Shown in pieces: positions 1 to 21,107 of a stretch of DNA of 46,553 bases (positions within the stretch are counted from its first letter, which is position 1; every line of letters begins with the position of its first letter). The position numbers and the translations under genes are program-made. Source of the stretch: Thermoflexales bacterium (GTDB lineage: Bacteria > Chloroflexota > Anaerolineae > Fen-1058); the NCBI GenBank assembly GCA_030834825.1, contig JAUQXC010000940.1, positions 1 to 46,553 of the forward strand, given 5' to 3'. Under the pieces are notes generated by a model that worked only from the letters and a program-made list of their open reading frames with translations, did not search any database and was not told the origin of the DNA.

Positions 1-549
1 AAGTTGGTTCAGACTTCGCTCGATGTCCCTTTGAAAGTCGCGCAGACCCTTGTGATAGATTTTGTTGTCCAGCACAGTATGGCCAGGCGCGCGTTGTTCC
101 ATGAACTCAGTGAAAACACCTGTCTCATAAGCGGCTTTCCATTCATCCGTCATTTCAGCAAACAGCAGCTCGCGCAGTGAGCGTCCTTGCCAGAATGGAA
201 TAATCTCGTCACGATACAAAGCGCGTGTTTCGGCGCTGACGACAAACGGAATCTTCTCGCGTGTGTTGAGAAGGTCCAGGTCCGGCAGGCTGTGGCAGCA
301 CAACTCGGGATAGGTGGGCGTGGCTTTGGGCGCGGGGCCTTTCTCGCCCACGATCAATTCATCTGCACCCATAAAGATGGTCTGGTGTTCCAGTAGGTAT
401 TGAAAGGCCAGGGCGCGTTTAACGGGCGCCGACAGCAGGCCGATCTGCTGCCCATAGGCCTGCGTCATCAATTGTGCCCGCTCGGATGAGAGGGTGGGTT
501 GAGCGTCTAGACTGCGCTGGCGCAAACGGGCGACACGTTCTGTCAGCAT
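1..549 (-). CDS. Glycyl radical enzyme (PFL2/glycerol-dehydratase type), N-terminal ~183 codons only; continues past the window start
   Basis: Absent from the ORF track because it runs off the window. A reverse-strand ATG at 549 (GGAAGG about 9 nt upstream) gives MLTERVARLRQRSLDAQPTLSSERAQLMTQAYGQQ..KRALAFQYLLEHQTIFMGADELIVGEKGP... This is a typical N-terminus for PFL2-family glycyl radical enzymes. The gene lies 48 nt downstream of a GRE activase. Confidence 0.75.
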   Translation of the reverse strand, partial: MLTERVARLRQRSLDAQPTLSSERAQLMTQAYGQQIGLLSAPVKRALAFQYLLEHQTIFMGADELIVGEKGPAPKATPTYPELCCHSLPDLDLLNTREKIPFVVSAETRALYRDEIIPFWQGRSLRELLFAEMTDEWKAAYETGVFTEFMEQRAPGHTVLDNKIYHKGLRDFQRDIERSLNQL

Positions 550-597
550 GATCTTTTACCTTCCCTTTCCGAAGATGGCCGGCCTTTCGCGAGGTTA

Positions 598-1503
598 CTA
601 TTCGCTAATCGTTACAGGCAAATCAAACTGTTGCAGCACAAGCGCGATCTCGCTCAGCCGATTTGTATCAGGCCGGCGGACCTCAAACAGCCGATAGGGC
701 TTGCCGAGTCGCAGGTATTTGTCGACGGCGATGTGATGATAGGCGAGCAGATCGATCGGATGACGCCGGGGCAGTGCGGCTATGAATTCCGCCAACTGCC
801 GGATCGCTTCGTCGTCGTCGTTGAGCCCGGGCACGATCGGGATGCGGATGACGATCGAGTGGCCGAGGGCCGAGAGGTCCTGCAGGTTGCGCAGGATGGA
901 GTGGTTGGTGACGCCGGTAAACTCGCGATGCCGCTCGTCGTCGATCAGCTTAAGATCGTAGAGAAAGAGATCGGTAAAGGGCCGAATTTGATCGAGCGTT
1001 TCCCACGAGGCGAAGCCGCACGTGTCGATTGCCGTATGCAGCTCGCGCGCGTGACAGGCCTGCAGCAGCGCGAGGAGAAAGTCGCGCTGAAGCAAAGGTT
1101 CACCGCCGGAGAACGTGACGCCACCGTGCGACTCATCGTAGAACGCCAGGTCAGGCTCAATCTCGGCCATGACCTGCTCCACGGTCATTTCGCGCCCGAC
1201 GATCTGGCGCACTTCAGCATAGCATTCGCTGACGCAGGTGCCACAGTGTTCGCACATCGCCCGATCGGTGATCGGCTCACCGTCAAGCCAGGTGATGGCC
1301 TGCTGTGGACAGGCCGCGAGGCATGCCCCGCAGCGAATGCAGCGATTCTCGTACAGGATCATTTCACGCTGCGGCGACTGACTCTCCGGGTTATGACACC
1401 ACCAACAATTAAGCGGACAGCCCTTGAAAAAGATCGTGGTCCGGAGACCCGGCCCATCATGAATCGCGTACTTTTTGATGTCGAAGATGAGTCCGTGTGT
1501 CAC
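598..1503 (-). CDS. Glycyl-radical enzyme activating protein (radical SAM, with two auxiliary 4Fe-4S ferredoxin motifs)
   Basis: Carries CPLNCWWCHNPES (CxxxCxxC), CIRCGACLAACP, CEHCGTCVSECY and GGVTFSGGEPL. I moved the start from 1632 to the GTG at 1503 (VTHGLIFDIKKYAIHDGPG), where this family normally begins. The 1632 start would cover the promoter/operator at 1605-1633. Confidence 0.85.
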   Translation of the reverse strand: MTHGLIFDIKKYAIHDGPGLRTTIFFKGCPLNCWWCHNPESQSPQREMILYENRCIRCGACLAACPQQAITWLDGEPITDRAMCEHCGTCVSECYAEVRQIVGREMTVEQVMAEIEPDLAFYDESHGGVTFSGGEPLLQRDFLLALLQACHARELHTAIDTCGFASWETLDQIRPFTDLFLYDLKLIDDERHREFTGVTNHSILRNLQDLSALGHSIVIRIPIVPGLNDDDEAIRQLAEFIAALPRRHPIDLLAYHHIAVDKYLRLGKPYRLFEVRRPDTNRLSEIALVLQQFDLPVTISE

Positions 1504-1604
1504 GGTGTTGCCCCTGCCTTCAGCGTTACGGACAAGCTTAAGCGCGGCGACGCAACATGTCAAATGACAAAGGTCACCTGTTTGAACGGTTAAACGTAGC
1601 CGGG

Positions 1605-1633
1605 TTGACAATCTGTGTACCGAATGGTACACT
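1605..1633 (+). promoter_or_regulatory. Sigma70-like promoter (TTGACA-17-TACACT) with embedded palindromic operator TGTACCGAATGGTACA (1616-1631)
   Basis: TTGACA at 1605-1610, a 17-nt spacer and TACACT at 1628-1633, 30 nt upstream of the TetR ATG. The inverted repeat TGTACC/GGTACA overlaps the spacer and the -10 element. Confidence 0.6.
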
Positions 1634-5689: not shown

Positions 5690-6559
5690 TCAATAGATTT
5701 CCGTCGCATCTTTGGGCAACTTTTTGACATGCCTCACGTAGTTGGATACTTTGATGTCATCCTGCTCCGGGTAATTGAATTCAAAGCAATTGGCCACGGA
5801 TTTGGCGCTCTGCCGAAAAAGATCATCCATGCTGAACAATGCTTCCCAGATGTGGTCCAACTGTGAATCAGAATAGGTGCCTTCGAGCAGCGCCCACAGC
5901 TCAGCGTCGATCTGACCCTTCAGGTATTTGCCCAATTTGCCGGAAGATTTTTGGAAATCTGTCTGTACGCCAAAGTACCATCTCAGCATTTTGAGCAATT
6001 GCTCTCTCAGCAGCGTGTCGAGTATGTACTTGGCGTGGATCAGCTCAGCGCGCCATAAGCTTTTGGCGACGTAGGGATTGAGCCACCAGAACTCATTGCA
6101 GCAATCGTCAAAGGCCTTGGCGCTCGGCTTTTGAGGAAGGTAGCCCGCGTCGCTCGGTGGCGGCAACTCTCCGAGCAGATTGTCCTTGTCGAGGAGCACC
6201 AGCGACAAACTATCTTTGAGGGTGACAGTGGTCTGGTGCAAGGCGTTGAAGCTCAGATCGATTCGAGTGCCGTCCATGAATTGCATCAGGTACGTGTAAT
6301 GCCCGTCACCCTCCGGGGGCGGATCGCTCATGTCTTCAGGCAACTGCAAGATCATGATCTCGCCGAAGTATTTGACGACGTCCATGTTGCGCCGGAACGG
6401 TTCGACGTCTCGGACATAGTAGACGATGTCGTAGTCCTGGAACGGATCTTTCTTTGCGTTGGGGTTGACGCGCGAACCATTCATCACCACGGCGCGTACC
6501 TCGTCGCACTCCCTGGCAAAGCTTAGAATGAGATCGAGCATTTCCTGTTCGCCGCGCAT
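5690..6559 (-). CDS. aadK: Aminoglycoside 6-nucleotidyltransferase, ANT(6)/AadK family (streptomycin adenylyltransferase-like)
   Basis: The N-terminus EMLDLILSFARECDEVRAVVMNGSRVNPNAKKDPFQDYDIVYYV closely resembles ANT(6)/AadK proteins, and the length (289 aa) fits. Confidence 0.8.
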   Translation of the reverse strand: MRGEQEMLDLILSFARECDEVRAVVMNGSRVNPNAKKDPFQDYDIVYYVRDVEPFRRNMDVVKYFGEIMILQLPEDMSDPPPEGDGHYTYLMQFMDGTRIDLSFNALHQTTVTLKDSLSLVLLDKDNLLGELPPPSDAGYLPQKPSAKAFDDCCNEFWWLNPYVAKSLWRAELIHAKYILDTLLREQLLKMLRWYFGVQTDFQKSSGKLGKYLKGQIDAELWALLEGTYSDSQLDHIWEALFSMDDLFRQSAKSVANCFEFNYPEQDDIKVSNYVRHVKKLPKDATEIY

Positions 6560-8864: not shown

Positions 8865-9302
8865 TCAAGCCGTAACGGGATCGGGTTTGGGCATTTTTGA
8901 CTCAGCCAACTTCTTACGGTGGGTCTGGACATCTTCAGCCTTCCCGTAGTACATGTTGAACGGTTGTTTGCTTAGCGCCGCCAGTTCCCAATGTTCGTGC
9001 GACAAGCTCAGGCAGTCGAAGCGGCAGTTCTGCACGCATTGTGCACAGTAGGTGCAGCGATCGGCGTGATACTCCATGACGAAGCGCTTGGCCTTTCTGT
9101 CGATCGTAATCACCTCGATCGCGTTCGATGGACAGTCCTTACTGCACAGGTTGCAGCCCGTGCACTTTTCCGGATTCCACGCCAACTGGCCGCGTAGTCG
9201 ATCGGGGGTGGAACGCCGCTCGTACGGGTAGTTCTCGGTAATCGGCCGTTTGAACAGCGACTTCAAAATATCACTCAACATGGTTGCCACTTGGAAATTC
9301 AT
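8865..9302 (-). CDS. NuoI/HycF/MbhN-like 2x[4Fe-4S] ferredoxin subunit
   Basis: CTGCNLCSKDCP and CTYCAQCVQNC. The ATG at 9302 overlaps the upstream stop (ATGA), which suggests translational coupling. Confidence 0.85.
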   Translation of the reverse strand: MNFQVATMLSDILKSLFKRPITENYPYERRSTPDRLRGQLAWNPEKCTGCNLCSKDCPSNAIEVITIDRKAKRFVMEYHADRCTYCAQCVQNCRFDCLSLSHEHWELAALSKQPFNMYYGKAEDVQTHRKKLAESKMPKPDPVTA

Positions 9303-10222
9303 AAGGTCTTGCCTCCTAATAATGCGATGATTAACCACTGCACCAGCAACAACAGCGCGGCAAAGCGCCACCACTTGGCGGTTTGCTCGATGCGGAAGCG
9401 GGCAAACAGGGATTGCAGCCCGGCCAGCACCAGCAAGATCGCCAGCGTCTTGACGAAGAACTCGATCGGGTTGCCGATGCCGCCTAGATAGAAGGCCGCA
9501 ATCAGCGTCAAGCCCACCACCAGCTCGACCGCCTTGGCTAATTGGAACAACGCTAACCCGCGGCCGCCGTATTCCGTCAACGCGCCCTTGACGATTTCGG
9601 TTTCGGCTTCTGGCGCATCAAAAGGCGGCAGTTCCAGCTTGCCCATCAAGCCGACGAGGGCCACCACACAGCCGATCGGTTGGGTGAGAATAAGCCAGTG
9701 TTGACCGGTGAAGGCGTTGATCGTGCTGATCTGCCAGCTCCCCGCGACCAGCGCGGGTCCCAACAGTGCCAGCATGAACGGCGCTTCATAGGAAAAGAGC
9801 TGTGTCAGCGTGCGCACTGCCCCAATGAGCGAGAAGCGATTGGCGGTGTTGGCGCCGGCCAGCGCCAGGCTCATCGTTACTACGCTCAGCAGATACACTG
9901 TGACGATCAGATCGCCCTGAAAACTCCACGCGGGCTGCAATCCGACCAGCGGCACATACACAGCCGCGGTCAATGCGCAGGCCAGAGCCAGCAGCGGCAG
10001 ACCGTTGAAGAGCCAGGCCTCAATACCCGTCGGGACGATCTCTTCTTTACTGAGCAGCTTCACCACGTCGGCCAGTGGCTGGAACCAGCGCGGCCCGATG
10101 CGGTTCTGATACTGCGCCACCAGTTTGCGATCCACCCACAGATAAGCCAGCCCGTTGCCCATGACGAACAGTCCGGCGGGGAAGAATAACAGGGTGATGA
10201 TTGGTTGAATGATCTCCATCAT
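9299..10222 (-). CDS. NuoH/HycD/MbhM-like membrane subunit
   Basis: LWVDRKLVAQYQNRIGPRWFQPLADVVKLLSKEEIVP matches the NuoH signature (R.GP...G..QP.AD..K...KE). The protein has multiple TM segments. Start taken at MMEIIQ (10222). Confidence 0.85.
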   Translation of the reverse strand: MMEIIQPIITLLFFPAGLFVMGNGLAYLWVDRKLVAQYQNRIGPRWFQPLADVVKLLSKEEIVPTGIEAWLFNGLPLLALACALTAAVYVPLVGLQPAWSFQGDLIVTVYLLSVVTMSLALAGANTANRFSLIGAVRTLTQLFSYEAPFMLALLGPALVAGSWQISTINAFTGQHWLILTQPIGCVVALVGLMGKLELPPFDAPEAETEIVKGALTEYGGRGLALFQLAKAVELVVGLTLIAAFYLGGIGNPIEFFVKTLAILLVLAGLQSLFARFRIEQTAKWWRFAALLLLVQWLIIALLGGKTL

Positions 10223-10304
10223 AAAGCCTCGGAAATTTCTTGAATAGCCAGTGCTGCGTGCTGAGCAACACCACCTGAATCGCACTTCACTTCGTCACTT
10301 ATCA

Positions 10305-11396
10305 TTACCGGTCATTGCACGAAAAACAGGGATCAATGCCCGCCAGAATCATCGGCATGTCGGCCAGCTGATGGCCCGGCGCGGTGGCGATGATGGACAT
10401 GAAGTTGCACAGGCTGGGCGTGCGCACCTTGACGCGCTCCGGCTTTTCGCCGCCGTTGCTCTTAATGAAGTAAAAAGCTTCACCGCGCGGCGCCTCGATG
10501 CGGCTGATCGCCTCGCCTTCTTTGACCTTGCGCGGCATGCGCACCGTCAAGTCGCCGGGCGGCAGATTGTCCACCATCTCGCGGATCAGGCGGTAACTTT
10601 CAAGCAACTCCTTCAAGCGCACCACAAAGCGCGCTTCCAGATCGCCGGCCGTTTCAACCACCACGTTGACTGGGAACAGATTGTAGGCTGCGTAGGGTGC
10701 GTCCACGCGGACGTCGCGCGCAATCCCCGAGGCGCGCGCCATGGGACCGATGACACCCACGTGCTCGGCTTGTGCGGTCGTGAGTGTGCCCACCCCGCGC
10801 GTCCGGCGGATGAAGGTGCTATCGGTGGTGACGACTTTGTAATAGTGGTGGGTGCGTTCTTCCAAGTAATCGACGCCACGCTGGATGGCAGCGCGTTGTT
10901 TCTCGTCCACATCGAATTTCACGCCGCCAAGTACGTTAGCCGAATAATTCACCCGGTTACCGGTCAATCCTTCCAGTACGTCCATGATCGTTTCGCGGTC
11001 GCGCCAACTGTACATGAACAACGTATCAAAGCCGCCTTCATGTGCGGCCACGCCCAGCCACAAGAAATGGCTGTGCACGCGTTCCAGCTCGGCGACCAGC
11101 GATCGAATCACCTGTGCACGGGGTGGCGCGGTCACTTCGGCCAGGGCTTCCACCCCCAGCGAATAACAGAGTGCATGCGTGTGCGAGCAGATGCCGCAGA
11201 TGCGCTCAAGCAGATACAGATTCTGGGCCCAGTTGCGATCTTCGGTCGCTTTCTCGATGCCGCGATGCACGTAGCCCAGGCGCACATTGACCGAAGTCAC
11301 GGTCTCGCCGTCGACGGCAAATTCAAAATGGCCCGGCTCTTTCAGGGCAGGGTGTTGCGGGCCGATCGGAACGATGAACTTTTCAAGAGCTAGCAT
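10305..11396 (-). CDS. Group 4 [NiFe]-hydrogenase large subunit (NuoD/EchE/MbhL-like) with intact Ni-Fe ligand motifs
   Basis: N-terminal RICGICSHTH (Cys67, Cys70) and C-terminal DPCFSCNDR (Cys357, Cys360, the last residues). Length of 363 aa is typical of EchE/MbhL. Confidence 0.85.
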   Translation of the reverse strand: MLALEKFIVPIGPQHPALKEPGHFEFAVDGETVTSVNVRLGYVHRGIEKATEDRNWAQNLYLLERICGICSHTHALCYSLGVEALAEVTAPPRAQVIRSLVAELERVHSHFLWLGVAAHEGGFDTLFMYSWRDRETIMDVLEGLTGNRVNYSANVLGGVKFDVDEKQRAAIQRGVDYLEERTHHYYKVVTTDSTFIRRTRGVGTLTTAQAEHVGVIGPMARASGIARDVRVDAPYAAYNLFPVNVVVETAGDLEARFVVRLKELLESYRLIREMVDNLPPGDLTVRMPRKVKEGEAISRIEAPRGEAFYFIKSNGGEKPERVKVRTPSLCNFMSIIATAPGHQLADMPMILAGIDPCFSCNDR

Positions 11397-11461
11397 AGGT
11401 TACCTTCTATAGGTGTGCTGAGTAAAGAGTCATGCGTAATCCTGGTTTAACCGCTTCCTGT

Positions 11462-12346
11462 CTACTGCAGTTGTGGCATTACAAAATCCTTGCGCAATGG
11501 CGGCGCATCCGTGGGCCACTCGTCAGGCAGGAACAAGCGATCGGGATTCGGCGTGTTCATGACTTCGATGCCGAACATCTCGCCCAACTCGCGCTCGAAG
11601 AACGTCGCTGCCGGAATGACGCCGCACACGCTGGGAATCGCCGCACTATCGCGCGGAATGCGCACGCGCAGGTTTACGTTGGCTGTGCCATTGACGAAGT
11701 GGTAGAGCACCTCAAACTCGTTTGCCTTCAAATCGTCAAGCCCCGTGATCGCGGTCAAGAATCCCCAGCGGGCTTCGTGCAGCGACTTGACCGCAGGCAG
11801 CAAGCGCCCGGCGTCCAAGTAGGCATCGGCGCGGTGCGCCGCCGACTCGACGATCTTCAGCGCGCGCGGTTCCAACAGACCCATCGCTTGATGCAGCGCA
11901 CGGTGCGCCTGCCCCAGTAGATGATTCCGCACGATTTCCCAATCGACTTCGCACTCTTTCAAGATGATGCTCTTACAGCCCAGCTCGAGGTGTAGGTTAT
12001 TGTCTTTCCAGTGCGTGCCCAGACCGGCTTCAAACTGGAACTCCTGACGCAGCCCTGGGGCCAACGCCAGTCGATCGGCCAGGGTCAGCCCGCTGTAAAC
12101 CGGTCCCTGCGGAAAATTCATGGCGTTAAGCCATTCTTCCGTGGCGGCCTGCGCAGTCTCGGGGCGTGCGGTGAGATAGACCAGTTTGTAGCGCTGCGCT
12201 AATTCCTTCAAGCAGCGCACGCTATCCGGCGTCGGCGCATCTTTCAGCAGGACTTCGCGCTTGAAAAAGTCCGGCGCGCCACTCAAGTGCTGTCGCTGGC
12301 GGTAATCGCAAATGATGCCATCGATGAAAACGAGAACTGCTCTCAT
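11462..12346 (-). CDS. Fusion protein with an N-terminal HAD-like (apparently nucleophile-less) domain and a NuoC/EchD/MbhK-like domain
   Basis: The C-terminal ~140 aa (FLTAITGLDD...EVLYHF...NLRVRIP...IPSVCGVIPAATFFERELGEMFGIEV) is NuoC-like. The N-terminal ~140 aa (VLVFIDGIICD, KLVYLTARPE..TEEWL, THWKDN) looks like a HAD phosphatase fold. It is a single ORF, with GAGGAG 6 nt before the ATG at 12346. Confidence 0.7.
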   Translation of the reverse strand: MRAVLVFIDGIICDYRQRQHLSGAPDFFKREVLLKDAPTPDSVRCLKELAQRYKLVYLTARPETAQAATEEWLNAMNFPQGPVYSGLTLADRLALAPGLRQEFQFEAGLGTHWKDNNLHLELGCKSIILKECEVDWEIVRNHLLGQAHRALHQAMGLLEPRALKIVESAAHRADAYLDAGRLLPAVKSLHEARWGFLTAITGLDDLKANEFEVLYHFVNGTANVNLRVRIPRDSAAIPSVCGVIPAATFFERELGEMFGIEVMNTPNPDRLFLPDEWPTDAPPLRKDFVMPQLQ

Positions 12347-12425
12347 GTGTGCTCCTCTGGAGATGGAGGTTGGAAAAACAGCGCGCCGCCTTGGGCGCCG
12401 ACCACCACTCTCCCACTTCCAATTT

Positions 12426-12905
12426 CTAACTGACCATTACTTCTGGCTGGGGTTGCAAGCTCTGCAACAGCTTCACCATACCGTCGATGATGGCTTCCGG
12501 CCGGGGCGGGCAGCCGGGAATATACGCATTGACCGGAATCACTTCATCGATGTGGCCGACGACGTTGTAGCAGACCTGGAACGCGCCGCCCGAGATCGCG
12601 CAAGCGCCAACGGCCACCACGAACTTCGGTTCCGGCATCTGCTCGTAGATGCGTTTCAACCGATCGCGCGATTGTAGCGTCACCGGCCCGGTGCAGATCA
12701 ACACATCCGCATGGCGCGGGCTGCCTTGCAGCTTCACGCCAAAGCGCTCCAGATCGTAGCGCGGTGTCAGCGTTGCCAGAATCTCGATGTCGCAGCCGTT
12801 GCACGATCCGCTGTTGTAGTGGATGGCCCATGGCGAATTGATGCGCGCCCAGGTGCGCAGCGCGTCGAGGGTGTGTTCCCAGGTTTCAGTCAAATTGAGT
12901 GACAT
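12426..12905 (-). CDS. NuoB/EchC/MbhJ-like hydrogenase small subunit (single [4Fe-4S])
   Basis: CNGCDIE, GACAISGG and IPGCPPRPEAI together supply four Cys ligands. The ATG at 12905 is preceded by GGAGGAATATCAC. Confidence 0.85.
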   Translation of the reverse strand: MSLNLTETWEHTLDALRTWARINSPWAIHYNSGSCNGCDIEILATLTPRYDLERFGVKLQGSPRHADVLICTGPVTLQSRDRLKRIYEQMPEPKFVVAVGACAISGGAFQVCYNVVGHIDEVIPVNAYIPGCPPRPEAIIDGMVKLLQSLQPQPEVMVS

Positions 12906-12962
12906 GTGATATTCCTCCAAGACCCAGAGGTGATGAGCCATTCACTCATCACGCGTCAGGCT

Positions 12963-13274
12963 TTAGCCAATGATCAACACGACCAGGGCCAGCATCAACC
13001 CGATCAAATACACGATCGAAATGGGCGAGTTGCCGCCGCTGCCCAGGATCAACACGCCCAGGTGCAACATGGCGAAGAACAGGGCGATGACGAAGAAGCC
13101 GCGATAACCCGGCAGCGAGCGAGTGAGCGGTGAAGCCTCGCCGCTGGCATAGATGCTGGACTTCTCTTTTGAAGGATTGCTCCTGCCTGCCAGCAGTCGT
13201 CCCACGCCAAATAAGCTCGCGGCCAACACCAAATACAGAATGAAGGCCACGGGTGGAGTAAGTATGATTTGCAT
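12963..13274 (-). CDS. NuoA-like small membrane subunit
   Basis: A 103-aa product from the ATG at 13274 with three predicted TM segments. IYASGE ... FFVIALFFAMLHLGVL parallels NuoA Y(E/A)xG ... FYLVAxxFxxFDVE. Confidence 0.55.
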   Translation of the reverse strand: MQIILTPPVAFILYLVLAASLFGVGRLLAGRSNPSKEKSSIYASGEASPLTRSLPGYRGFFVIALFFAMLHLGVLILGSGGNSPISIVYLIGLMLALVVLIIG

Positions 13275-13285
13275 GTTGAAATCCT

Positions 13286-14794
13286 TTATCCGCCAAAGGC
13301 TTTGACTAGCGCCGTACCGGCTGGCCCTGTCAGCCAGGCCAACAAACTCGGCCAGAGGCCCAGGATCACGATCGCGACAGCCAGTAGAATCAAGGGCAGG
13401 CTCATCGTCCACGACAGCGCCTGCCCGCGCGTCACCGCTTCACTTGGCTCTTGCCGATAGACGGCGTTCACGATCGGCGCGTAATAAGCCAATGACAGCA
13501 CGCTGTTCAACGCGGCGAAAATCACCAGCAGATCGATCACGATGTTCTGCGTCTCGAAGCCGGCCACGAAGATTTGCCACTTGGACATGAACCCGGCAAA
13601 CGGTGGCAGCCCACCCAGCCCTAAGGCAGCGATGCTCAACGTCAAGGCCACGATCGGGTATTTGCGTGCCGCACCACCCAGATCGCTGATCGTCAGCGGC
13701 GAGTGATGATCGCCGGTCTTGATGAACAGCACGTATAACAACGCGCCCGCTGCCAGGAAGGCGAGTCCCTTCATCAAACCATGATTAATCAAGTGGAAGA
13801 AACTACCAGCGGCCGCTGCGCTCTGGCCCACATAAACGGCGATGCCCAGCCCCAGCAGCATATAACCCATATGGCTCAAACTGGAGAACGCCAGCATGCG
13901 CTTCACATGCTTTTGGCGCAGCGCCAGCAAATTTCCCGCCAGCATATTCAACGCGCCGAAGCCCATCAGCAGCACACCCCACGACAACGTCACACCGGCC
14001 AACGAAGCGACCGCGCGCAACAAGGCGATCAACCCTGCTTCGATCACCACGCCCGACAGCATGGCGCTGATCCCACTGGGCGCCTGGGAGTGCGCGTCGG
14101 GCAGCCACGTGTGCATCGGCACCAGCGCGGCCTTCACGCCAAACCCAATGACGAACAAGGCGCCCGCCGCAAGTAGCGGCAAACCGGGGGTTGCCGGCTG
14201 TCCCGCCACGGCGCGAATCTCGGCCAGATTCATCGTCCCCGTCAGCGCCAGCACCAGTGCCATCCCCAACAGCACCAACACCGATCCGACCGCGCTCTGC
14301 ACCAGATACTTCAAGCCGGCCTCCAGTGACGCCGGTTGATCGCGATAGAACGCGACGAGCAGATACGATGAGATCGCCATTGCTTCGAACCACACCCACA
14401 GATTGAATAGATCCGTCGCGCAACCCAAACCGGTGATCACACCGATCAGTGCCACCAGCATGGGATAGTATTTGTCTTCGTTCTCTTCATGCGCAACATA
14501 TCGATTGGAGTACACCACCACCAGCGTGCCCAGGCTCAACGCAATGGCCGCCAGCACCAGGCTGATCCCGTCCATGCGCAGCGTCATCCCTTCGACAACC
14601 AGGCTGATCGATCCGGTGCCTACTTGTTGTGCGGCAATCACGAACGGGATCCACGTCAACCCGATCACGCCAAGTGCGGCCCAGCGCCCAAGGTTGAACA
14701 AGCGGCCCGCGAAATAGACTAGTGGGGCAGCCACCAGGGGTAGTCCGATCAACCACAACAGTACATTGTCCAGTGCGAATTGTTCCGTGCTCAT
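13286..14794 (-). CDS. NuoM/NuoN/MrpD-like antiporter-type membrane subunit
   Basis: Polytopic protein with WLPDAHSQAPSGISAMLSGV and SSLSHMGYMLLG motifs of the proton-conducting transporter family. Start at MSTEQF (14794), 2 nt after the upstream stop. Confidence 0.8.
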   Translation of the reverse strand: MSTEQFALDNVLLWLIGLPLVAAPLVYFAGRLFNLGRWAALGVIGLTWIPFVIAAQQVGTGSISLVVEGMTLRMDGISLVLAAIALSLGTLVVVYSNRYVAHEENEDKYYPMLVALIGVITGLGCATDLFNLWVWFEAMAISSYLLVAFYRDQPASLEAGLKYLVQSAVGSVLVLLGMALVLALTGTMNLAEIRAVAGQPATPGLPLLAAGALFVIGFGVKAALVPMHTWLPDAHSQAPSGISAMLSGVVIEAGLIALLRAVASLAGVTLSWGVLLMGFGALNMLAGNLLALRQKHVKRMLAFSSLSHMGYMLLGLGIAVYVGQSAAAAGSFFHLINHGLMKGLAFLAAGALLYVLFIKTGDHHSPLTISDLGGAARKYPIVALTLSIAALGLGGLPPFAGFMSKWQIFVAGFETQNIVIDLLVIFAALNSVLSLAYYAPIVNAVYRQEPSEAVTRGQALSWTMSLPLILLAVAIVILGLWPSLLAWLTGPAGTALVKAFGG

Positions 14795-14796
14795 GG

Positions 14797-16545
14797 CTAC
14801 TTCCCCCAGGCCAGTAGGATTAGCACCACGATCAAGCCGATCGCGATCCCGGCTACGTTCCAACTGAGCAGCCCCGTCTGTGTCACCCGCAGCGCTTCTG
14901 CGGTGCTTTGCGTTACGCGGATCACGCCGCGATTGATCGCCTCGAAGCCGAAGCTGTTCGTCGCCATCCGCGCAAGACCCTGCAGCATCCTGGTGAGGCC
15001 TGTCAATCGCTGGCGTTGCCACCACAACAGCCCACCAGCGACAATCACGGCCAGAGCGGCGAGCGTCGCGGGCTGGGTAATGACTTCCTGGATCATTCCC
15101 CCAGTGCGGAGCTCGTGAAACTCATGGAAGGGCAGCGTGCTCTTCAGTAGCTCACTCAACGGTCCGGCTAACAACCACGTCGTCACGGAGCCGAGGGCCA
15201 ACAACCCCAGCGAAACTTTCATCGCCGGCTGTGCATCGTGCGCGTGGAGGTGACTGCGCGGCTTACCGAAGAACACCAGATAAACCATGCGCAGGGTGTA
15301 CAGCGCTGTCAGGCCTGCGCAGAAAAACGCCACACCGTAAGCCCACAGCGAACCTTCATGCAGGCCGGCTTCCAAAATCAATTCCTTACTCCAGAAGCCA
15401 TTGAAGATGGGAATACCGGCCAGGGCCAGCGCCCCGATCACGAACACCGTGCGCGTGAAAGGCATCCGCGAGCCGAGTCCACCCATCTGGCGCATATCGC
15501 GTGTGCCCACGCCATGAATCACGGCGCCGGCGGCCAGGAAGAGCAATGCCTTGAAGACAGCGTGACTTAGCAGGTGGAACTGACTGGCATACACCCCACC
15601 CGCGCCGATGGCATACACCATGTACCCTAATTGGCTTACGGTCGAATAAGCCAGCGCACGCTTGAGGTCGGTCGCCACCAATGCCATCAGTCCCGCCAGC
15701 AACGCAGAGAGTAACCCCACGATCATCACGGCGGTTGTCCAGCCGGCCACTCCCTCAAATGCGGGGAAGAAACGCGCCAACAGATACACGCCAGCGTTGA
15801 CCATCGTCGCCGCGTGGATCAAAGCGCTGACTGGCGTGGGTGCCTCCATTGCATCGGGCAACCATGTCTGGAACGGAAACTGTGCCGATTTGGCCGCCGC
15901 CGCAATGAGGAATCCAAACGCGACCAGCGCCAGGACCTCTTTCGGCAGTGTTTCGGCCCTTTCGAGAAAAGCGGCGATCTGATAGCTGCCCGTCTGGGCA
16001 TAGATGATCAAGGCCCCGCTGAGCAACCCCACCCCACCGAGCGAGGTGATAATCAGGGCCTTGATCCCCCCCGCCACTGCCTTGGGATCATCGTTATTGA
16101 AGGCAATCAGCGCGAACGAGCAGAAGGCCGTGACTTCCCAGAACACAAACAGAAACAACAGGCTGCCGGTCAACGCCAAACCCGCCATTGCGCCGATGAA
16201 CAACAACACCAGCTCATAATAGCGCCCCAGCTGTTTATCGCCGTGCATATAATTTACCGAGAAGATAACGGCCAGTGAGCCGACCACGGTCGCGATGATT
16301 GCGAGGAACACGCTCAGGCCGTCGGGCGTGAAAGTGAGATCACCGAAAAGGCCGCCCAAGGGGATCACAATCGCCGGAGTGGCAGAGGCATATGGCAGCA
16401 GCAACAACGCAGCGCTACCGGTGGCTACAGCAAACACGACAGCCAGTGTGTGTTGTGCCCGCGGGTGTTTGTTTGTCGTCAACCACACGGCCAGTCCACC
16501 CAGCCAGGGCAAACCCATTGTGAGGAGAATCAATGCTTGAATCAT
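14797..16545 (-). CDS. NuoL/MrpA/MbhH-like antiporter-type membrane subunit with C-terminal lateral-helix-like extension
   Basis: WLPDAMEAPTPVSALIHAATMV and STVSQLGYM motifs. The C-terminal SFGFEAINRGV...QTGLLSWNVAGIAIGLIVVLILLA resembles the NuoL HL helix plus its final TM segment. Confidence 0.8.
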   Translation of the reverse strand: MIQALILLTMGLPWLGGLAVWLTTNKHPRAQHTLAVVFAVATGSAALLLLPYASATPAIVIPLGGLFGDLTFTPDGLSVFLAIIATVVGSLAVIFSVNYMHGDKQLGRYYELVLLFIGAMAGLALTGSLLFLFVFWEVTAFCSFALIAFNNDDPKAVAGGIKALIITSLGGVGLLSGALIIYAQTGSYQIAAFLERAETLPKEVLALVAFGFLIAAAAKSAQFPFQTWLPDAMEAPTPVSALIHAATMVNAGVYLLARFFPAFEGVAGWTTAVMIVGLLSALLAGLMALVATDLKRALAYSTVSQLGYMVYAIGAGGVYASQFHLLSHAVFKALLFLAAGAVIHGVGTRDMRQMGGLGSRMPFTRTVFVIGALALAGIPIFNGFWSKELILEAGLHEGSLWAYGVAFFCAGLTALYTLRMVYLVFFGKPRSHLHAHDAQPAMKVSLGLLALGSVTTWLLAGPLSELLKSTLPFHEFHELRTGGMIQEVITQPATLAALAVIVAGGLLWWQRQRLTGLTRMLQGLARMATNSFGFEAINRGVIRVTQSTAEALRVTQTGLLSWNVAGIAIGLIVVLILLAWGK

Positions 16546-16561
16546 GTGAGCCTCGTGAGGC

Positions 16562-16598
16562 GTAAAACGTAATAAGCCGCTTACGCATTACGTTTTAC
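16562..16598. repeat. Perfect 12-bp inverted repeat (GTAAAACGTAAT ... ATTACGTTTTAC) in the spacer between the nuoK-like and nuoL-like genes
   Basis: Read directly from the sequence. It has a 13-nt loop and lies within the 63-nt intra-operon gap. Confidence 0.7.
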
Positions 16599-16608
16599 AC
16601 AGTACGTA

Positions 16609-16914
16609 TCACTTCTTCAACGTCGACAAATCCTTGATATCGAGCGTTCCCATGCGCCGCTTCACCTGAAGCGCCAGCGCCAATCCAATAACGGCGACGA
16701 CGGTATCGACCACGATCACCATCACGGCCAGGCTCTGTCCCAGATTGAGCTTGCCACTGGCCAGGCCGGCCGCCACCAATGCCAGCAGCGCGCCTTTCAC
16801 CAGCACTTGCAACGCTACGATGACCTTAATCAGATTGCGAGCGATCAACAGGCCATACAACCCAATCCCGATCAATCCCAACACCCCTATCACGGCGATT
16901 TGAAGTGTAGTCAT
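16609..16914 (-). CDS. NuoK/MnhC-like small membrane subunit
   Basis: 101 aa with three TM segments. ARNLIKVIVALQVLVKGALLALVAAG and VIGLALALQVKRR parallel NuoK. The ATG overlaps the upstream stop (ATGA). Confidence 0.75.
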   Translation of the reverse strand: MTTLQIAVIGVLGLIGIGLYGLLIARNLIKVIVALQVLVKGALLALVAAGLASGKLNLGQSLAVMVIVVDTVVAVIGLALALQVKRRMGTLDIKDLSTLKK

Positions 16915-17474
16915 GCTTTCGCCTCGCGAGCTGCGGCGGTTGCAGGTTTCACTACAGGGCGGCCCGCCTGTAACTCCTTCGCAGGCGCGGTCTTCTTCTC
17001 TTCCACCGGAACCTTGGCTTCAGAGAGCAACCCCAGTATGCCGACGACCGCGGCGAACAGTAGGCCGCTTTGCACCAGCATGTCCAGACCGCGCTGTTGC
17101 CAGAGTACTTCGGAGAAAGTCGCTTCAGTTGCCGGCGGAAGCGCAATCAGTGAGGAGATAGTCATGAAGCCGAGTAGGATGATCGAGACAAGGGAAATGA
17201 TCAAGGCGATCGGGCGGGGAATGCTCGATCTGAACTCGGCCGATTCATCGCCGGCAATGCTGATCGCGAACACGAACAGCACCGTCACCAACCCGGCACC
17301 CACACTGAGTTCAATCACAGCGATCCAGTAGGCGCCCAGCAGATACATCAAAATCGAAAGGATCGCGCTGCACCCTGCCAGCCACAACGCCGAAACGATT
17401 AAGTGCCTTGCCCGAAATGCCAGGAAGGCACAGAGCAACATGGCGACGGTCAGGGCCGCAAACAAGAAACTCAT
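16911..17474 (-). CDS. NuoJ-like membrane subunit
   Basis: LGAYWIAVIELSVGAGLVTVLFVFAI parallels NuoJ GA.F.A..EI.VYAGAI.VLF.F. The ATG at 17474 has GGAGGT 7 nt upstream; the track's TTG start at 17489 is that RBS. Confidence 0.75.
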   Translation of the reverse strand: MSFLFAALTVAMLLCAFLAFRARHLIVSALWLAGCSAILSILMYLLGAYWIAVIELSVGAGLVTVLFVFAISIAGDESAEFRSSIPRPIALIISLVSIILLGFMTISSLIALPPATEATFSEVLWQQRGLDMLVQSGLLFAAVVGILGLLSEAKVPVEEKKTAPAKELQAGRPVVKPATAAAREAKA

Positions 17475-17705
17475 ACTTTCTACCTCCAAGTTGTTAACAC
17501 CTCAAACCAAAGAAGATTACCGCTAATTGGGAAAAACCGGTTCTGAAAAATGTCATGCTTTGTCTACGCTATTCAGCACGTTTGTGATTTTCAGCACAAA
17601 AATCCGGCTGTCAGTGGGTAAGCACGAGACCAATAATCTTTAAATCGCTCAGATTCTAAAAAAAGCACCCAAAAGCCCAACTTTCTGCAAACCAAAAATT
17701 ACCTC

Positions 17706-17750
17706 TTGACAAAGTTGCTCATACGCTTATAATATGAACGAACGTTCATA
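17706..17750 (+). promoter_or_regulatory. Near-consensus sigma70 promoter (TTGACA-16-TATAAT) overlapped by palindrome TATGAACGAACGTTCATA (17733-17750)
   Basis: TTGACA at 17706-17711 and TATAAT at 17728-17733. An 8-bp inverted repeat with a 2-nt spacer starts at the last base of the -10, 21 nt before the TetR ATG. Confidence 0.65.
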
Positions 17751-17770
17751 CTTTTTCATGTGGGGTACCC

Positions 17771-18430
17771 ATGCCAGCCAAACGTTCCCTCTCAAAGCAA
17801 AAAACATCCCTGACAATGGCCATAACTCCGCCCGCTGAGCCGACCACCAAGGGCGAGCGCACACGTGCGGTACTGCTCGATGCGGCTAAACGCTTATTTG
17901 TCAGCCAAGGGTTTCATGGCACGTCCATGCGGGCGATTGCGGATGAAGCCGGGCTGGCCTTGGGCGGCATCTACAACCATTTTGGCAGCAAAGAAGACAT
18001 CTTTGTCGCCATCTTGGCGGAACGGCATCCGTTCCTCATTGTGCTGCCCGCCATACAATCTGCGCAGGGCGCCACGGTCGAGGTGTTGGTGCGGGATGCG
18101 GCAGGACGCATGATTGCTGAACTCAGTCAAAATCAGGAGTTCCTGAATTTGCTGCTCATCGAGCTGGTGGAGTTTGAAGCCAAACACATCCCCATGATGT
18201 TCGACACCCTCTTTCCGCCCTTGATGGAGTTTGCCCAACGCTTTCAAGCGGTGCACGGTCCACTGCGCGAGATTCCCCTGCCGATTATTTTGCGCTCCTT
18301 TATCGGCTTGTTCTTTTCCTACTTCATCACCGATCTGCTCATCGGCAACCTGTTGCCGGCAGAAATGAAGAGCGGTGCCTTCGACTATTTCATCGACATC
18401 TACCTGCACGGGATTCTGGCCGGCGAATGA
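17771..18430 (+). CDS. TetR/AcrR family transcriptional regulator
   Basis: HTH region RTRAVLLDAAKRLFVSQGFHGTSMRAIADEAGLALGGIYNHFGSKEDIF. Confidence 0.9.
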   Translation: MPAKRSLSKQKTSLTMAITPPAEPTTKGERTRAVLLDAAKRLFVSQGFHGTSMRAIADEAGLALGGIYNHFGSKEDIFVAILAERHPFLIVLPAIQSAQGATVEVLVRDAAGRMIAELSQNQEFLNLLLIELVEFEAKHIPMMFDTLFPPLMEFAQRFQAVHGPLREIPLPIILRSFIGLFFSYFITDLLIGNLLPAEMKSGAFDYFIDIYLHGILAGE

Positions 18431-19575
18431 AAGTGGTCAGCATGATCAATTCACGCTTGCGTTCCATCATCTACAAAGAGTTCATTCAAATCATCCGCGA
18501 TCCGCGCACCTTGGTGATCATGTTTATCATGCCCATCCTCATGTTGTTCCTGCTGGGGTATGCGGCCACCAACGATGTGCGCAACATCCCGGCGGCGATT
18601 TTTGATCAGGATCGTTCTGTGGCTGCCCGCGAGTTGATCGACGCCTACCGCGCCGCCGATTACTTCCGGTTTGATTTTGACGTGAGCTCACCTGAAGAAC
18701 TGCAGTGGCTCATCGACAGCGGGCAGGCGCGCGCCGGGTTGATCATCCCGCCGGATTACGGGCAACGCCTGGCACGCCACGAACAGGCGCAGGTGGCCTT
18801 TATCCTGGATGGTTCCGATCCCACCATCGCGGCCACGGCACTGTCGGCGGCCACCTTGATCGGGCAGGCCAAGGCCACGGCGGTGCTGCGCGCCACGCTG
18901 GAGACGCGCGGCCAGGGCGGCTCGATCGAAGCGCCGGTCGAAGTCCGCACCCAGGTCTGGTACAACCCCGATCTCGTCAGCGCCTATTTCATGATTCCGG
19001 CGCTCATCGGCACGATTCTGCAGTATATGGCGGTGCTGTTAACTTCCACTTCGATCGTGCGTGAGCGGGAGCGCGGCACGATCGAGCAGCTCATCATCAC
19101 GCCCATTCGTTCCTGGGAACTGGTGGTCGGCAAGCTCACACCTTACACCTTGATCGCGTTCTTCAATTTGCTGGAAGTATTGATCATCGGCACGTTGTGG
19201 TTCAAAGTTCCCATCACGGGCGACCTCGGTTTATTGCTGGTTTTGTCGGCGTTGTTTTTGGTCAGTACGCTGGGTATCGGTTTGCTCATCTCGACGATCG
19301 CGCGGACGCAGTTTGAGGCGATGCTGCTGGCCTTTCTCATTCAATTGCCGGCGATCTTCCTGTCAGGCTTCTTCTTCCCGCTGGCCGCCATGCCGCCCTT
19401 CCTGCAAGCGTTGAGCTATCTGGTGCCGCTGCGCTACTTCTTGATTATTGTGCGTTCGATTGTCATCAAAGGCGTCGGGTTGGCGGCTGTGTTTCCGGAA
19501 GTAATAGCATTGGCGATCTTTGGATTGCTGGTGATGGGCATCGCGGCGCGGCGCTTCCATAAGCGGTTGGATTAA
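18427..19575 (+). CDS. ABC-2 type transporter permease (YbhR/YhhJ-like)
   Basis: IIYKEFIQIIRDPRTLVIMFIMPILMLFLLGYA, a large periplasmic loop, then five C-terminal TM segments. There is an ATGA overlap with the TetR stop. Confidence 0.85.
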   Translation: MKVVSMINSRLRSIIYKEFIQIIRDPRTLVIMFIMPILMLFLLGYAATNDVRNIPAAIFDQDRSVAARELIDAYRAADYFRFDFDVSSPEELQWLIDSGQARAGLIIPPDYGQRLARHEQAQVAFILDGSDPTIAATALSAATLIGQAKATAVLRATLETRGQGGSIEAPVEVRTQVWYNPDLVSAYFMIPALIGTILQYMAVLLTSTSIVRERERGTIEQLIITPIRSWELVVGKLTPYTLIAFFNLLEVLIIGTLWFKVPITGDLGLLLVLSALFLVSTLGIGLLISTIARTQFEAMLLAFLIQLPAIFLSGFFFPLAAMPPFLQALSYLVPLRYFLIIVRSIVIKGVGLAAVFPEVIALAIFGLLVMGIAARRFHKRLD

Positions 19576-20529: not shown

Positions 20530-20640
20530 GGCTCTTCCGGGTTGAACGGGATCTTCCGGCATGGGGCTGCCGGAACCACGGGTTGTAGTGCCGCAGCGCT
20601 AGCAGCCTTATGCCATCGCCCTGTCGAAGCCGGAAGAGCC
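20530..20640. mobile_element. MITE copy B (111 bp), with perfect 11-bp TIRs GGCTCTTCCGG / CCGGAAGAGCC and 8-bp direct repeat GGAAGTCC on both flanks
   Basis: GGAAGTCC at 20522-20529 and again at 20641-20648. The first ~25 nt (GGCTCTTCCGGGTTgAACGGGA) match copy A (GGCTCTTCCGGGTTtAACGGGA). It is inserted directly after the pfkB-like stop codon. Confidence 0.75.
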
Positions 20641-20660
20641 GGAAGTCCAAAAGGAGTCCC

Positions 20661-21107
20661 ATGAAACGCAAACAACTTCGTCCGCCGGATGTTCGTTTGA
20701 TAAAGACGTTTTACGCCCTTGGCTTAGGCCCGTTGATTGGCCGGTTGATTCTGCTGCTCACCACCACCGGCCGCAAATCGGGCTTGCCCAGAGTGACGGC
20801 GCTTCAATACGAAGAGGTGGATGGGGCGATCTATGTCGGCTCTTCCAAAGGCACGCGCGCCGATTGGTTTCAGAACCTTTTAGCAAGCCCGCGCGTTACC
20901 GTCCGCGTGAAGTCCCGCCAATTTTCTGGAATGGCTCAACCCGTGACCGATCCCGTGCTCATCGCCGACTTTCTCGAACTGCGACTCCAGCGCCATCCGC
21001 GGATGATTGGCATGATGCTGAAGTCCGAAGGGCTACCGGCAGCACCCAGTCGGGCCGAACTGGAAACCTATGCAGGCAGATTGGCACTGGCTATTATCCG
21101 ACCGTGA
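20661..21107 (+). CDS. Deazaflavin (F420)-dependent nitroreductase/quinone reductase family protein (Ddn-like)
   Basis: GRLILLLTTTGRKSGLPRVTALQYEEVDGAIYVGSSKGTRADWFQNLLASPRVTV is typical of the PF04075-type family. The ATG at 20661 is preceded by AAGGAG. Confidence 0.7.
   Translation: MKRKQLRPPDVRLIKTFYALGLGPLIGRLILLLTTTGRKSGLPRVTALQYEEVDGAIYVGSSKGTRADWFQNLLASPRVTVRVKSRQFSGMAQPVTDPVLIADFLELRLQRHPRMIGMMLKSEGLPAAPSRAELETYAGRLALAIIRP

Follow-up and report, generated by a model that had tools for sequence, protein, structure and literature searches.

The 46,553-nucleotide contig JAUQXC010000940.1 of a Thermoflexales bacterium (GenBank assembly GCA_030834825.1; Chloroflexota, Anaerolineae), referred to here over its whole length as the window, carries between positions 8865 and 17474 ten co-directional minus-strand open reading frames (ORFs), whose products are NuoJ-, K-, L-, N/MrpD-, A-, B-, C-, D-, H-, and I-like in this order. 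With a probability of about 0.78, this operon encodes a ten-subunit membrane-bound energy-converting group 4 [NiFe]-hydrogenase, in which ferredoxin-driven H2 evolution would be coupled to ion translocation. The enzyme class, as judged from the sequence, is highly probable; the ferredoxin donor, the direction of the reaction, the pumped ion, and the arrangement of the subunits are proposed with lower confidence than the class. The operon is a typical member of an abundant, uncharacterised Anaerolineae subfamily of a known enzyme class.

Catalytic Module

The NuoD-like protein D keeps both pairs of Ni-Fe ligands, C67 and C70 in the motif RICGICSHTH and C357 and C360 in the terminal DPCFSCNDR. 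Together with E20, the glutamate of the KEPGHF loop, these cysteines are invariant in 11 aligned sequences of 73–91% identity. In a broader alignment of 138 sequences (the window protein, three references, and the nearest library representatives), the first motif reads CGICS in 59 and is another CxxC variant in most of the remaining ones, and the second motif is CxxC in at least 99. In E. coli NuoD, the two cysteine positions read EYLGG and FVMS, and the quinone-site tyrosine is absent from D. The invariance of both CxxC pairs and of the KEPGHF glutamate among the relatives identifies the NuoD homolog as the large subunit of a [NiFe]-hydrogenase and not a quinone-site NuoD, as had been proposed in an earlier reading of this DNA (hereafter the original prediction). 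Among solved structures in the PDB, D scores highest with MbhL (268 bits), followed by HycE (250) and Nqo4 (216).

Protein B has four cysteines (in SCNGC, GACA, and PGCP) for one [4Fe-4S] site; C35, C38, C102, and C132 align to C63, C64, C129, and C158 of NuoB, with a hydrogenase-type CxxC pair in place of the tandem CC of complex I. Its best solved match is MbhJ (183 bits), ahead of NdhK (137) and HycG (130). Because MbhL and MbhJ give the top PDB scores for D and B, the catalytic module is, by sequence similarity, closest to the Pyrococcus membrane-bound hydrogenase (MBH) among solved structures. The ferredoxin-type protein I contains two CxxCxxCxxxC motifs, CTGCNLCSKDC and CTYCAQCVQNC, and all the cysteine motifs originally quoted for D, B, and I were found in the translations. 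Of the general features of group 4 [NiFe]-hydrogenases, the motifs of D, the CxxC...C...C pattern of B, two [4Fe-4S] clusters in I, and a NuoH-like H are present.

Operon and Gene Models

Gene starts were chosen by ribosome-binding site and homology. The ten genes with the homologs originally named are all present on the minus strand at the coordinates given for them:

16911–17474, minus strand: J, NuoJ-like membrane subunit, 187 residues; start ATG at 17474 with a GGAGG ribosome-binding site
16609–16914, minus strand: K, NuoK/MrpC-like, 101 residues; Pfam Oxidored_q2, NCBIfam NuoK models
14797–16545, minus strand: L, NuoL/MrpA-type antiporter-like subunit, 582 residues; Pfam Proton_antipo_N and Proton_antipo_M, top NCBIfam model NuoL
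13286–14794, minus strand: N, MbhH/MrpD-type antiporter-like subunit, 502 residues; Pfam Proton_antipo_M
12963–13274, minus strand: A, small three-helix NuoA/ND3-like protein, 103 residues; weak Oxidored_q4 match (E=0.001, below cutoff)
12426–12905, minus strand: B, NuoB/MbhJ-like hydrogenase small subunit, 159 residues; Pfam Oxidored_q6, 119.8 bits
11462–12346, minus strand: C, NuoC/MbhK-like, 294 residues; Pfam Complex1_30kDa and LNS2_PITM1-3
10305–11396, minus strand: D, [NiFe]-hydrogenase large subunit, 363 residues; Pfam Complex1_49kDa and NiFeSe_Hases
10299–10307, minus strand: three consecutive stop codons, TAA TGA TAA, directly after the ...DPCFSCNDR end of D
9299–10222, minus strand: H, NuoH/MbhM-like membrane anchor, 307 residues; Pfam NADHdh, 226 bits
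8865–9302, minus strand: I, NuoI/MbhN-like ferredoxin-type protein with two [4Fe-4S] clusters, 145 residues; two Pfam Fer4 matches, NCBIfam NuoI and HycF-type models

Each of the ten proteins matches the expected complex-I/hydrogenase family of Pfam or NCBIfam, A being the sole weak case. The true start of the N gene is ATG 14794, not that of a long GTG ORF, and the B gene is better started at 12905, behind a GGAGG ribosome-binding site (the alternative is 12941). The ATGA overlaps at 16911–16914 (J/K) and 9299–9302 (H/I), also part of the original prediction, follow from the ORF starts and ends. The label 'M/N-like' for the second antiporter-like subunit has to be changed, its closest relatives being MbhH and MrpD. 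When compared with a 91%-identical relative (locus L002), all ten genes show ratios of nonsynonymous to synonymous substitution rates (dN/dS) of 0.06–0.19 and are under purifying selection; the value for D is 0.06.

The 79-nucleotide gap between B and C (12347–12425, minus strand) contains a GC-rich hairpin followed by a T-run (12398–12383), which may be due to chance. A scan of the operon for terminators and promoters gave counts not above the shuffled expectation.

Membrane Arm

The membrane subunits combine MBH-like and complex-I-like traits. Protein J matches both Pfam Oxidored_q3 (44.8 bits) and MbhD (26.2 bits): its first three helices, the half corresponding to MbhD/MbsD, are DUF4040-like, while the full-length protein is NuoJ/ND6-like and fused in the manner of NuoJ. 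Its best solved matches are 6cfw_D and 6u8y_D, followed by ND6, and the motif AVIELSVGAGL is kept across the family. In protein K, Q36 and V73 stand in place of the NuoK glutamates E36 and E72, and an invariant D69 lies close by. Protein H finds NdhA (114 bits), Nqo8 (98), and MbhM (96) in the PDB, and every acidic residue of the NuoH E-channel is conserved in it. The small protein A matches only ND3 (7zm7_3, E=0.028), with the loop EKSSIYASGE set against EKLSAFECGF; 54 family members keep the loop motif Y-x-SGE, and an A-like gene occupies the same position in all relatives.

Of the two antiporter-like subunits, N is best matched by MbhH (6cfw_H, 218 bits) and conserves E137, K221, and K405. 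Protein L is closest to Nqo12 (NuoL; 289 bits), then to MrpA (252) and MbhH (188), and its E137, K219, H324, H328, K332, K387, and E388 match NuoL channel residues. The C-terminus of L is collinear with T. thermophilus Nqo12 into the start of the lateral helix (HL). An AlphaFold2 model built on a 39-sequence alignment (mean predicted local distance difference test score, pLDDT, 83) places transmembrane helix TM15 at residues 492–509, two helices at 511–531 and 535–555, and a terminal helix (TM16) at 560–579. The last 50 residues have low confidence in the model, which is expected, since such a helix needs partner subunits. Foldseek searches with the model return NuoL/ND5/NdhF and MrpA at the top. 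The Nqo12 alignment and the AlphaFold2 helices thus agree with the initial view that the L-like subunit ends in a lateral helix and a terminal transmembrane segment. At about 45 residues, the lateral helix could reach across one neighbouring subunit. HL length is known to track the number of antiporter-like subunits (review PMC8165549), and the modelled helix would fit this rule. With a fused NuoJ-like protein, NuoK- and NuoA-like proteins, and two antiporter-like subunits, one of them bearing a lateral helix, the membrane arm is indeed richer than that of Ech.

Relatives and Synteny

Protein D has thousands of close database homologues, and a scan of one genome per species gave at least 591 confirmed genome matches. 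The best 80 of these are 67–91% identical to D and, judged by their record titles, belong almost entirely to Anaerolineae (Anaerolineales, Ardenticatenaceae, Promineifilaceae, Caldilineaceae, and Thermoflexus); Longilinea arvoryzae and Leptolinea tardivitalis, both in culture, are among them. In 58 of the 61 loci containing all ten genes, these lie on one strand in the order J-K-L-N-A-B-C-D-H-I. In the three exceptions (L038, L055, and L062), the L and N queries match the same region between K and A. By sequence, these loci appear to have a single antiporter-like gene of the MbhH/MrpD type and would represent a nine-subunit form without the NuoL-type lateral-helix subunit.

When 555 flanking ORFs from about 80 loci were clustered, no conserved neighbour was found besides hycI; the commonest cluster of flanking genes is present in 8 of the loci and is unrelated. 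Nor are FdhF, HycB-like, CooS, or NuoEFG genes conserved within 6 kb of the operon in these loci. With no conserved neighbour, an input module dedicated to formate, CO, or NADH becomes less likely, and ferredoxin or another soluble donor more likely.

The operon is therefore not the unplaced oddity it was first taken for, as its D protein falls into a well-populated family with a common synteny. The original prediction had itself named, as what would count against it, a populated and already described subgroup sharing this gene order. Largely, this is what the relatives show. A literature search returned no paper on the Anaerolineae family itself, only generic statements on other taxa. The cultured members Longilinea and Leptolinea were reportedly described by Yamada et al. 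in 2006/2007 as H2-producing fermenters.

C-Terminal Peptide and Maturation

In the window, D ends exactly at the HycI cleavage site, where its relatives carry an extension of 26–54 residues. All 61 loci with such a C-terminal peptide have hycI after the operon; in Longilinea, for example, D has a 30-residue peptide, and a gene for a HycI-family protease then follows the operon. The five testable peptide-less loci (L002, L004, L009, L040, and L051) all lack hycI, and no hycI gene was detected in the window by Pfam scans of the other sizeable ORFs. Loss of the peptide and loss of hycI are perfectly correlated, and the peptide-less loci are spread over several lineages of the family. EchE-type enzymes likewise have no C-terminal peptide.

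The missing endopeptidase is thus explained and is no anomaly: D already ends at the cleavage site, there is no peptide to cut, and the same co-loss is seen in five other loci. This co-loss, along with the dN/dS of D, also led us to reject the idea that the peptide-less D is a truncated pseudogene. It represents a clean natural experiment on the protease dependence of [NiFe] maturation. As for the other maturation genes, six relatives (L007, L009, L013, L055, L069, and L078) have hypF, A, B, C, D, or E directly beside the operon. The earlier statement that the 46 kb contain no NuoEFG, formate dehydrogenase, carbon monoxide dehydrogenase (CODH), hyp, or endopeptidase genes was borne out by Pfam scans of every other sizeable ORF and, for HypA-F, by tblastn.

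Relation to Known Energy-Converting Enzymes

The position of D was examined in a neighbour-joining tree of 134 sequences with 100 bootstraps, in which EchE, 4f, 4h, and 4i references were not included. The node uniting the family together with P0130 has a bootstrap of 96%. Corrected distances from the window D are 1.08 to MbhL, 1.15 to a CooH-like protein, 1.22 to HycE, and 1.60 to NuoD. At 50% clustering, the Anaerolineae family is reduced to a few representatives, and the next ones, 46–53% identical, include proteins of Methanoregula, Bathyarchaeota, and Oscillospiraceae and a Pelolinea paralogue. The Methanoregula representatives are labelled 'membrane-bound hydrogenase subunit alpha', and mbhL is the name given to proteins of both Bathyarchaeota and Methanoregula; a CooH-labelled representative (38% identity) lies in a separate clade with a bootstrap of 91. 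Many family members bear the automatic JGI label 'ech hydrogenase subunit E'. The HydDB group 4g is described as 'loosely clustered' and polyphyletic (PMC5037454; PMC13582414), and the enzyme of Bathyarchaeota BA1 has been called 4g (PMC5037454). This makes 4g a plausible subgroup label for the Anaerolineae enzyme, though the sequence relationships are suggestive only.

The MBH of Pyrococcus furiosus (HydDB 4d; PDB 6CFW) is the best solved match for D, B, N (MbhH), and the first half of J (MbhD). Its gene order D/E-G-H-I-J-K-L-M-N corresponds to J-K-(L)-N-A-B-C-D-H-I in the window, so the genes are not in a scrambled nuo order but follow that of Mbh, with one NuoL-type gene added and the Na+ module missing. 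Like the window operon, MBH has no dedicated input module, and a ferredoxin-dependent mechanism is the natural inference from this shared trait. The differences are also considerable. MBH has 14 subunits, including an MrpEFG-type Na+ module (MbhA-C/F), whereas the window has ten genes, no similarity to MrpE/F/G, and unrelated flanks. MBH possesses one antiporter-like subunit and carries its lateral helix on MbhI; the window enzyme has two such subunits, with the helix on the NuoL/MrpA-type L, and the short NuoA/ND3-like A (103 residues, three helices) stands in the place of MbhI. MbhD and MbhE are separate proteins, while their equivalents in the window are fused into one NuoJ-like protein. 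Finally, MBH comes from the archaeon Pyrococcus, and the window enzyme is bacterial and mesophilic.

With complex I (Nuo/Nqo), the window operon shares homologues of A, B, C, D, H, I, J, K, and L and one of M/N. Its L is closest to Nqo12 and has HL and TM16, and the acidic residues of NuoH and the ND3-type loop are kept. In contrast to complex I, which has a quinone site, a tandem CC in B, NuoEFG, and three antiporter-like subunits, the window enzyme has a Ni-Fe site, CxxC in B, no NuoEFG, and two antiporter-like subunits. Valentin-Alvarado et al. (2024, PMC11291895) have already described an architecture between hydrogenases and complex I, the idea raised in the original prediction, for a 'complex I-like' group 4 [NiFe]-hydrogenase of Asgard archaea; ferredoxin oxidation and a linking position between hydrogenases and complex I have been proposed for it. 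Both that enzyme and the window operon have an HL-bearing L-like subunit and two antiporter-like subunits on a [NiFe] module, a likeness in architecture. The Asgard enzyme is archaeal and is encoded along with Hdr, ATP synthase, and a group 3 hydrogenase; all that is known of it comes from models, and a full-length HL is reported for it, in contrast to the helix of about 45 residues in the window.

Among the other enzymes, Ech (4e) shares with the window operon the core homologues of B, D, H, and I, but it consists of six subunits (EchABCDEF) with a single EchA, a unique EchD, and no NuoA/J/K/C, as compared with ten subunits, two of them antiporter-like. The same core is shared by the formate hydrogenlyases Hyc/Hyf of E. 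coli (4a; PDB 7Z0S), and the C-terminal peptide of HycE and the HycI protease have counterparts in most family members. However, in Hyc/Hyf the NuoC and NuoD parts are fused (HycE) and FdhF/HycB serve as input modules, while C and D are separate in the window and no such modules are encoded. The CO-induced hydrogenase (4c) is linked to CooS/CooF, whereas neither the window nor the approximately 80 loci have a CODH. The MBS/Mbx and Mrp complexes resemble the window enzyme in having an MrpA/MbsH'-type subunit with HL and TM15-16, an MrpD/MbsH-type subunit, an MrpC/NuoK-like subunit, and a DUF4040-like one (PMC8165549). Unlike the window enzyme, which keeps the Ni-Fe cysteines, MBS has lost them and reduces polysulfide; Mrp has no redox module, and both have MrpEFG-type subunits that are missing from the window.

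Proposed Mechanism and Alternative Explanations

According to the proposed mechanism, reduced ferredoxin formed in fermentation would dock on the NuoI-like protein I, and its electrons would pass through the two [4Fe-4S] clusters of I and then the one cluster held by the MbhJ-like B. At the Ni-Fe site in the MbhL-like D, they would reduce protons to H2. The free energy would be conveyed by the NuoH/A/J/K-like 'E-channel' subunits to N (MbhH/MrpD-type) and L (NuoL/MrpA-type), which, clamped by the short lateral helix, would export H+ or, less likely, Na+. The reaction is probably reversible. In the clade of the window, D would be made in an already 'processed' form, with no need for the HycI protease.

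Several points weigh against this interpretation. No hyp genes were detected in the 46-kb window by Pfam scans or by tblastn with E. coli HypA-F, and neither a ferredoxin nor a pyruvate:ferredoxin oxidoreductase gene is linked to the operon. The nodes beyond the family have bootstraps of 9 or less in the neighbour-joining tree, leaving the deep position of D unsupported. The carboxylates of NuoK (E36, E72) and NuoA (D79, E81) are not conserved, and therefore a part of the complex-I E-channel differs here. We found no experiment on the electron donor, the direction, or the pumped ion for the Anaerolineae family.

Three other explanations were considered, all of them ranked below the ferredoxin-oxidising, H2-evolving one. 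The same enzyme could run mainly in the uptake direction, like Ech, Eha, and Ehb of methanogens: H2 would be consumed, and ferredoxin would be reduced at the expense of the membrane potential to serve biosynthesis or CO2 fixation. Group 4 enzymes are generally reversible, nothing in the sequence fixes the direction, and six relatives have a cytosolic group-3-type hydrogenase set nearby, which suggests internal H2 cycling. Yet the window has no linked carbon-fixation genes, and the cultured Anaerolineae with this operon are fermenters that grow better alongside H2 consumers, so that predominant H2 uptake seems unlikely. Still less probable is that the operon encodes the hydrogenase half of a formate hydrogenlyase-type complex, with a formate dehydrogenase encoded elsewhere and formate supplied by a pyruvate formate-lyase (PFL)-like enzyme 7 kb away. 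The glycyl-radical enzyme and its activase at 1–1632, found beside the operon in L002 as well, the HycE-style extension and HycI-family protease of most family members, and the second rank of HycE (250 bits) among the solved matches of D would all suit such a complex. Nevertheless, FdhF/HycB-like genes are neither in the operon nor conserved within 6 kb in the approximately 80 loci, NuoC and NuoD are separate, D and B are closer to MbhL and MbhJ, and the PFL neighbourhood is limited to the clade of the window.

Least credible of all is a complex-I-like oxidoreductase that no longer makes H2, similar to Mbx/MBS, Ehr, or Fpo, or an operon in decay. It is true that NCBIfam ranks NuoD and FpoD first among its models for D, though neither reaches the cutoff, and that the 46 kb hold no maturation genes. 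On the other hand, D keeps the four Ni-Fe cysteines and the catalytic-loop glutamate, none of which NuoD has; the quinone-site tyrosine is missing, and B has CxxC and not CC. Decay is at odds with strong purifying selection, with the absence of frameshifts, and with the exact pairing of hycI loss and loss of the substrate peptide, which recurs in five other loci belonging to several lineages.

Returning to the ferredoxin-driven hydrogenase, its membrane subunits might be assembled in the complex-I order (H, A/J/K, N, L, with the HL of L running back over N) and not in the inverted order of MBH. Such an arrangement is allowed by the separate NuoA/ND3-like A with its loop motif, the fused NuoJ, and an HL-bearing L closest to Nqo12, but we regard it as a tentative and rather doubtful proposal. 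If true, this enzyme would stand nearer to the ancestor of complex I than any other bacterial hydrogenase, and the transition from hydrogenase to quinone reductase would be open to experiment in cultured Longilinea and Leptolinea.

Nothing in the operon should surprise a specialist, and its general architecture is already on record for Asgard archaea. The family nonetheless offers a compact ten-subunit bacterial enzyme in culturable species, and its mixture of an MBH-like catalytic module with complex-I-like membrane subunits makes it a good target for cryo-electron microscopy addressing the origin of complex I from hydrogenases. Anaerolineae are among the most abundant fermenters of anaerobic digesters, sediments, and activated sludge, and the operon is probably their main route for passing ferredoxin electrons to H2 with energy conservation, which bears on models of syntrophy.

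HAD-Like Domain of the NuoC-Like Subunit

Protein C is composed of an N-terminal degenerate HAD/LNS2-like domain of about 145 residues (approximately 11909–12346), which the original prediction had missed, and a NuoC domain (residues 177–291). Among the loci, this extension is limited to the closest relatives of the window, L002 (9069–9950) and L086 (8001–8408), and in the latter it is called as a separate gene after B. A few stand-alone homologues of 146–167 residues lie beside unrelated genes. The position of the nucleophilic aspartate in HAD motif I is occupied by phenylalanine in every homologue, and the acidic motif GDxxDD (GDRWDDN) is missing as well from the window copy. An active phosphatase was rejected on these grounds. 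The extension has a dN/dS of 0.14, indicating purifying selection, and since the catalytic aspartate positions are substituted, it is probably a non-catalytic accessory domain. The observation of a HAD/LNS2-like domain also covers L087 and L088.

Flanking Genes

The operon is separated from a divergent TetR-family gene by one intergenic region, annotated by pattern matches only:

17475–17770, no strand: divergent intergenic region between the operon and the TetR-family gene

A weak promoter-like site facing the operon was matched at 17614–17587 (minus strand). A perfect sigma-70 consensus, TTGACA-16 nt-TATAAT, matched by pattern at 17706–17733 (plus strand), lies ahead of the TetR-family gene, which is followed by an ABC-2 permease gene (17771–19575, plus strand for both). 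This arrangement is kept in L002 and L086, and the TetR-family protein probably regulates the transporter and not the hydrogenase.

At the edge of the window, a PFL-like glycyl-radical enzyme (cut by the edge) and a radical-SAM activase are encoded at 1–1632 (minus strand), and the same pair is present near the L002 operon. It could be a source of formate or of another product of radical chemistry.

In about six of the loci from L004 to L083 (including L056, 15742–17043), a cytosolic [NiFe]-hydrogenase-like set lies within 6 kb of the operon. It comprises a large subunit with RICGICSVSH and iron-sulfur and flavoprotein-like subunits, and it was judged from sequence to be group-3-like; related subunit-like genes occur in L010, L038, and L040. 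No cytosolic group-3-like hydrogenase genes are present in the window.

Two further genes of the window deserve mention. A gene of the streptomycin (ANT(6))-type adenylyltransferase family is located at 5690–6559 (minus strand; Pfam E=2.6e-106), and an F420H2-dependent quinone-reductase-like gene at 20610–21107 (plus strand) fits a Chloroflexota-type cofactor repertoire.

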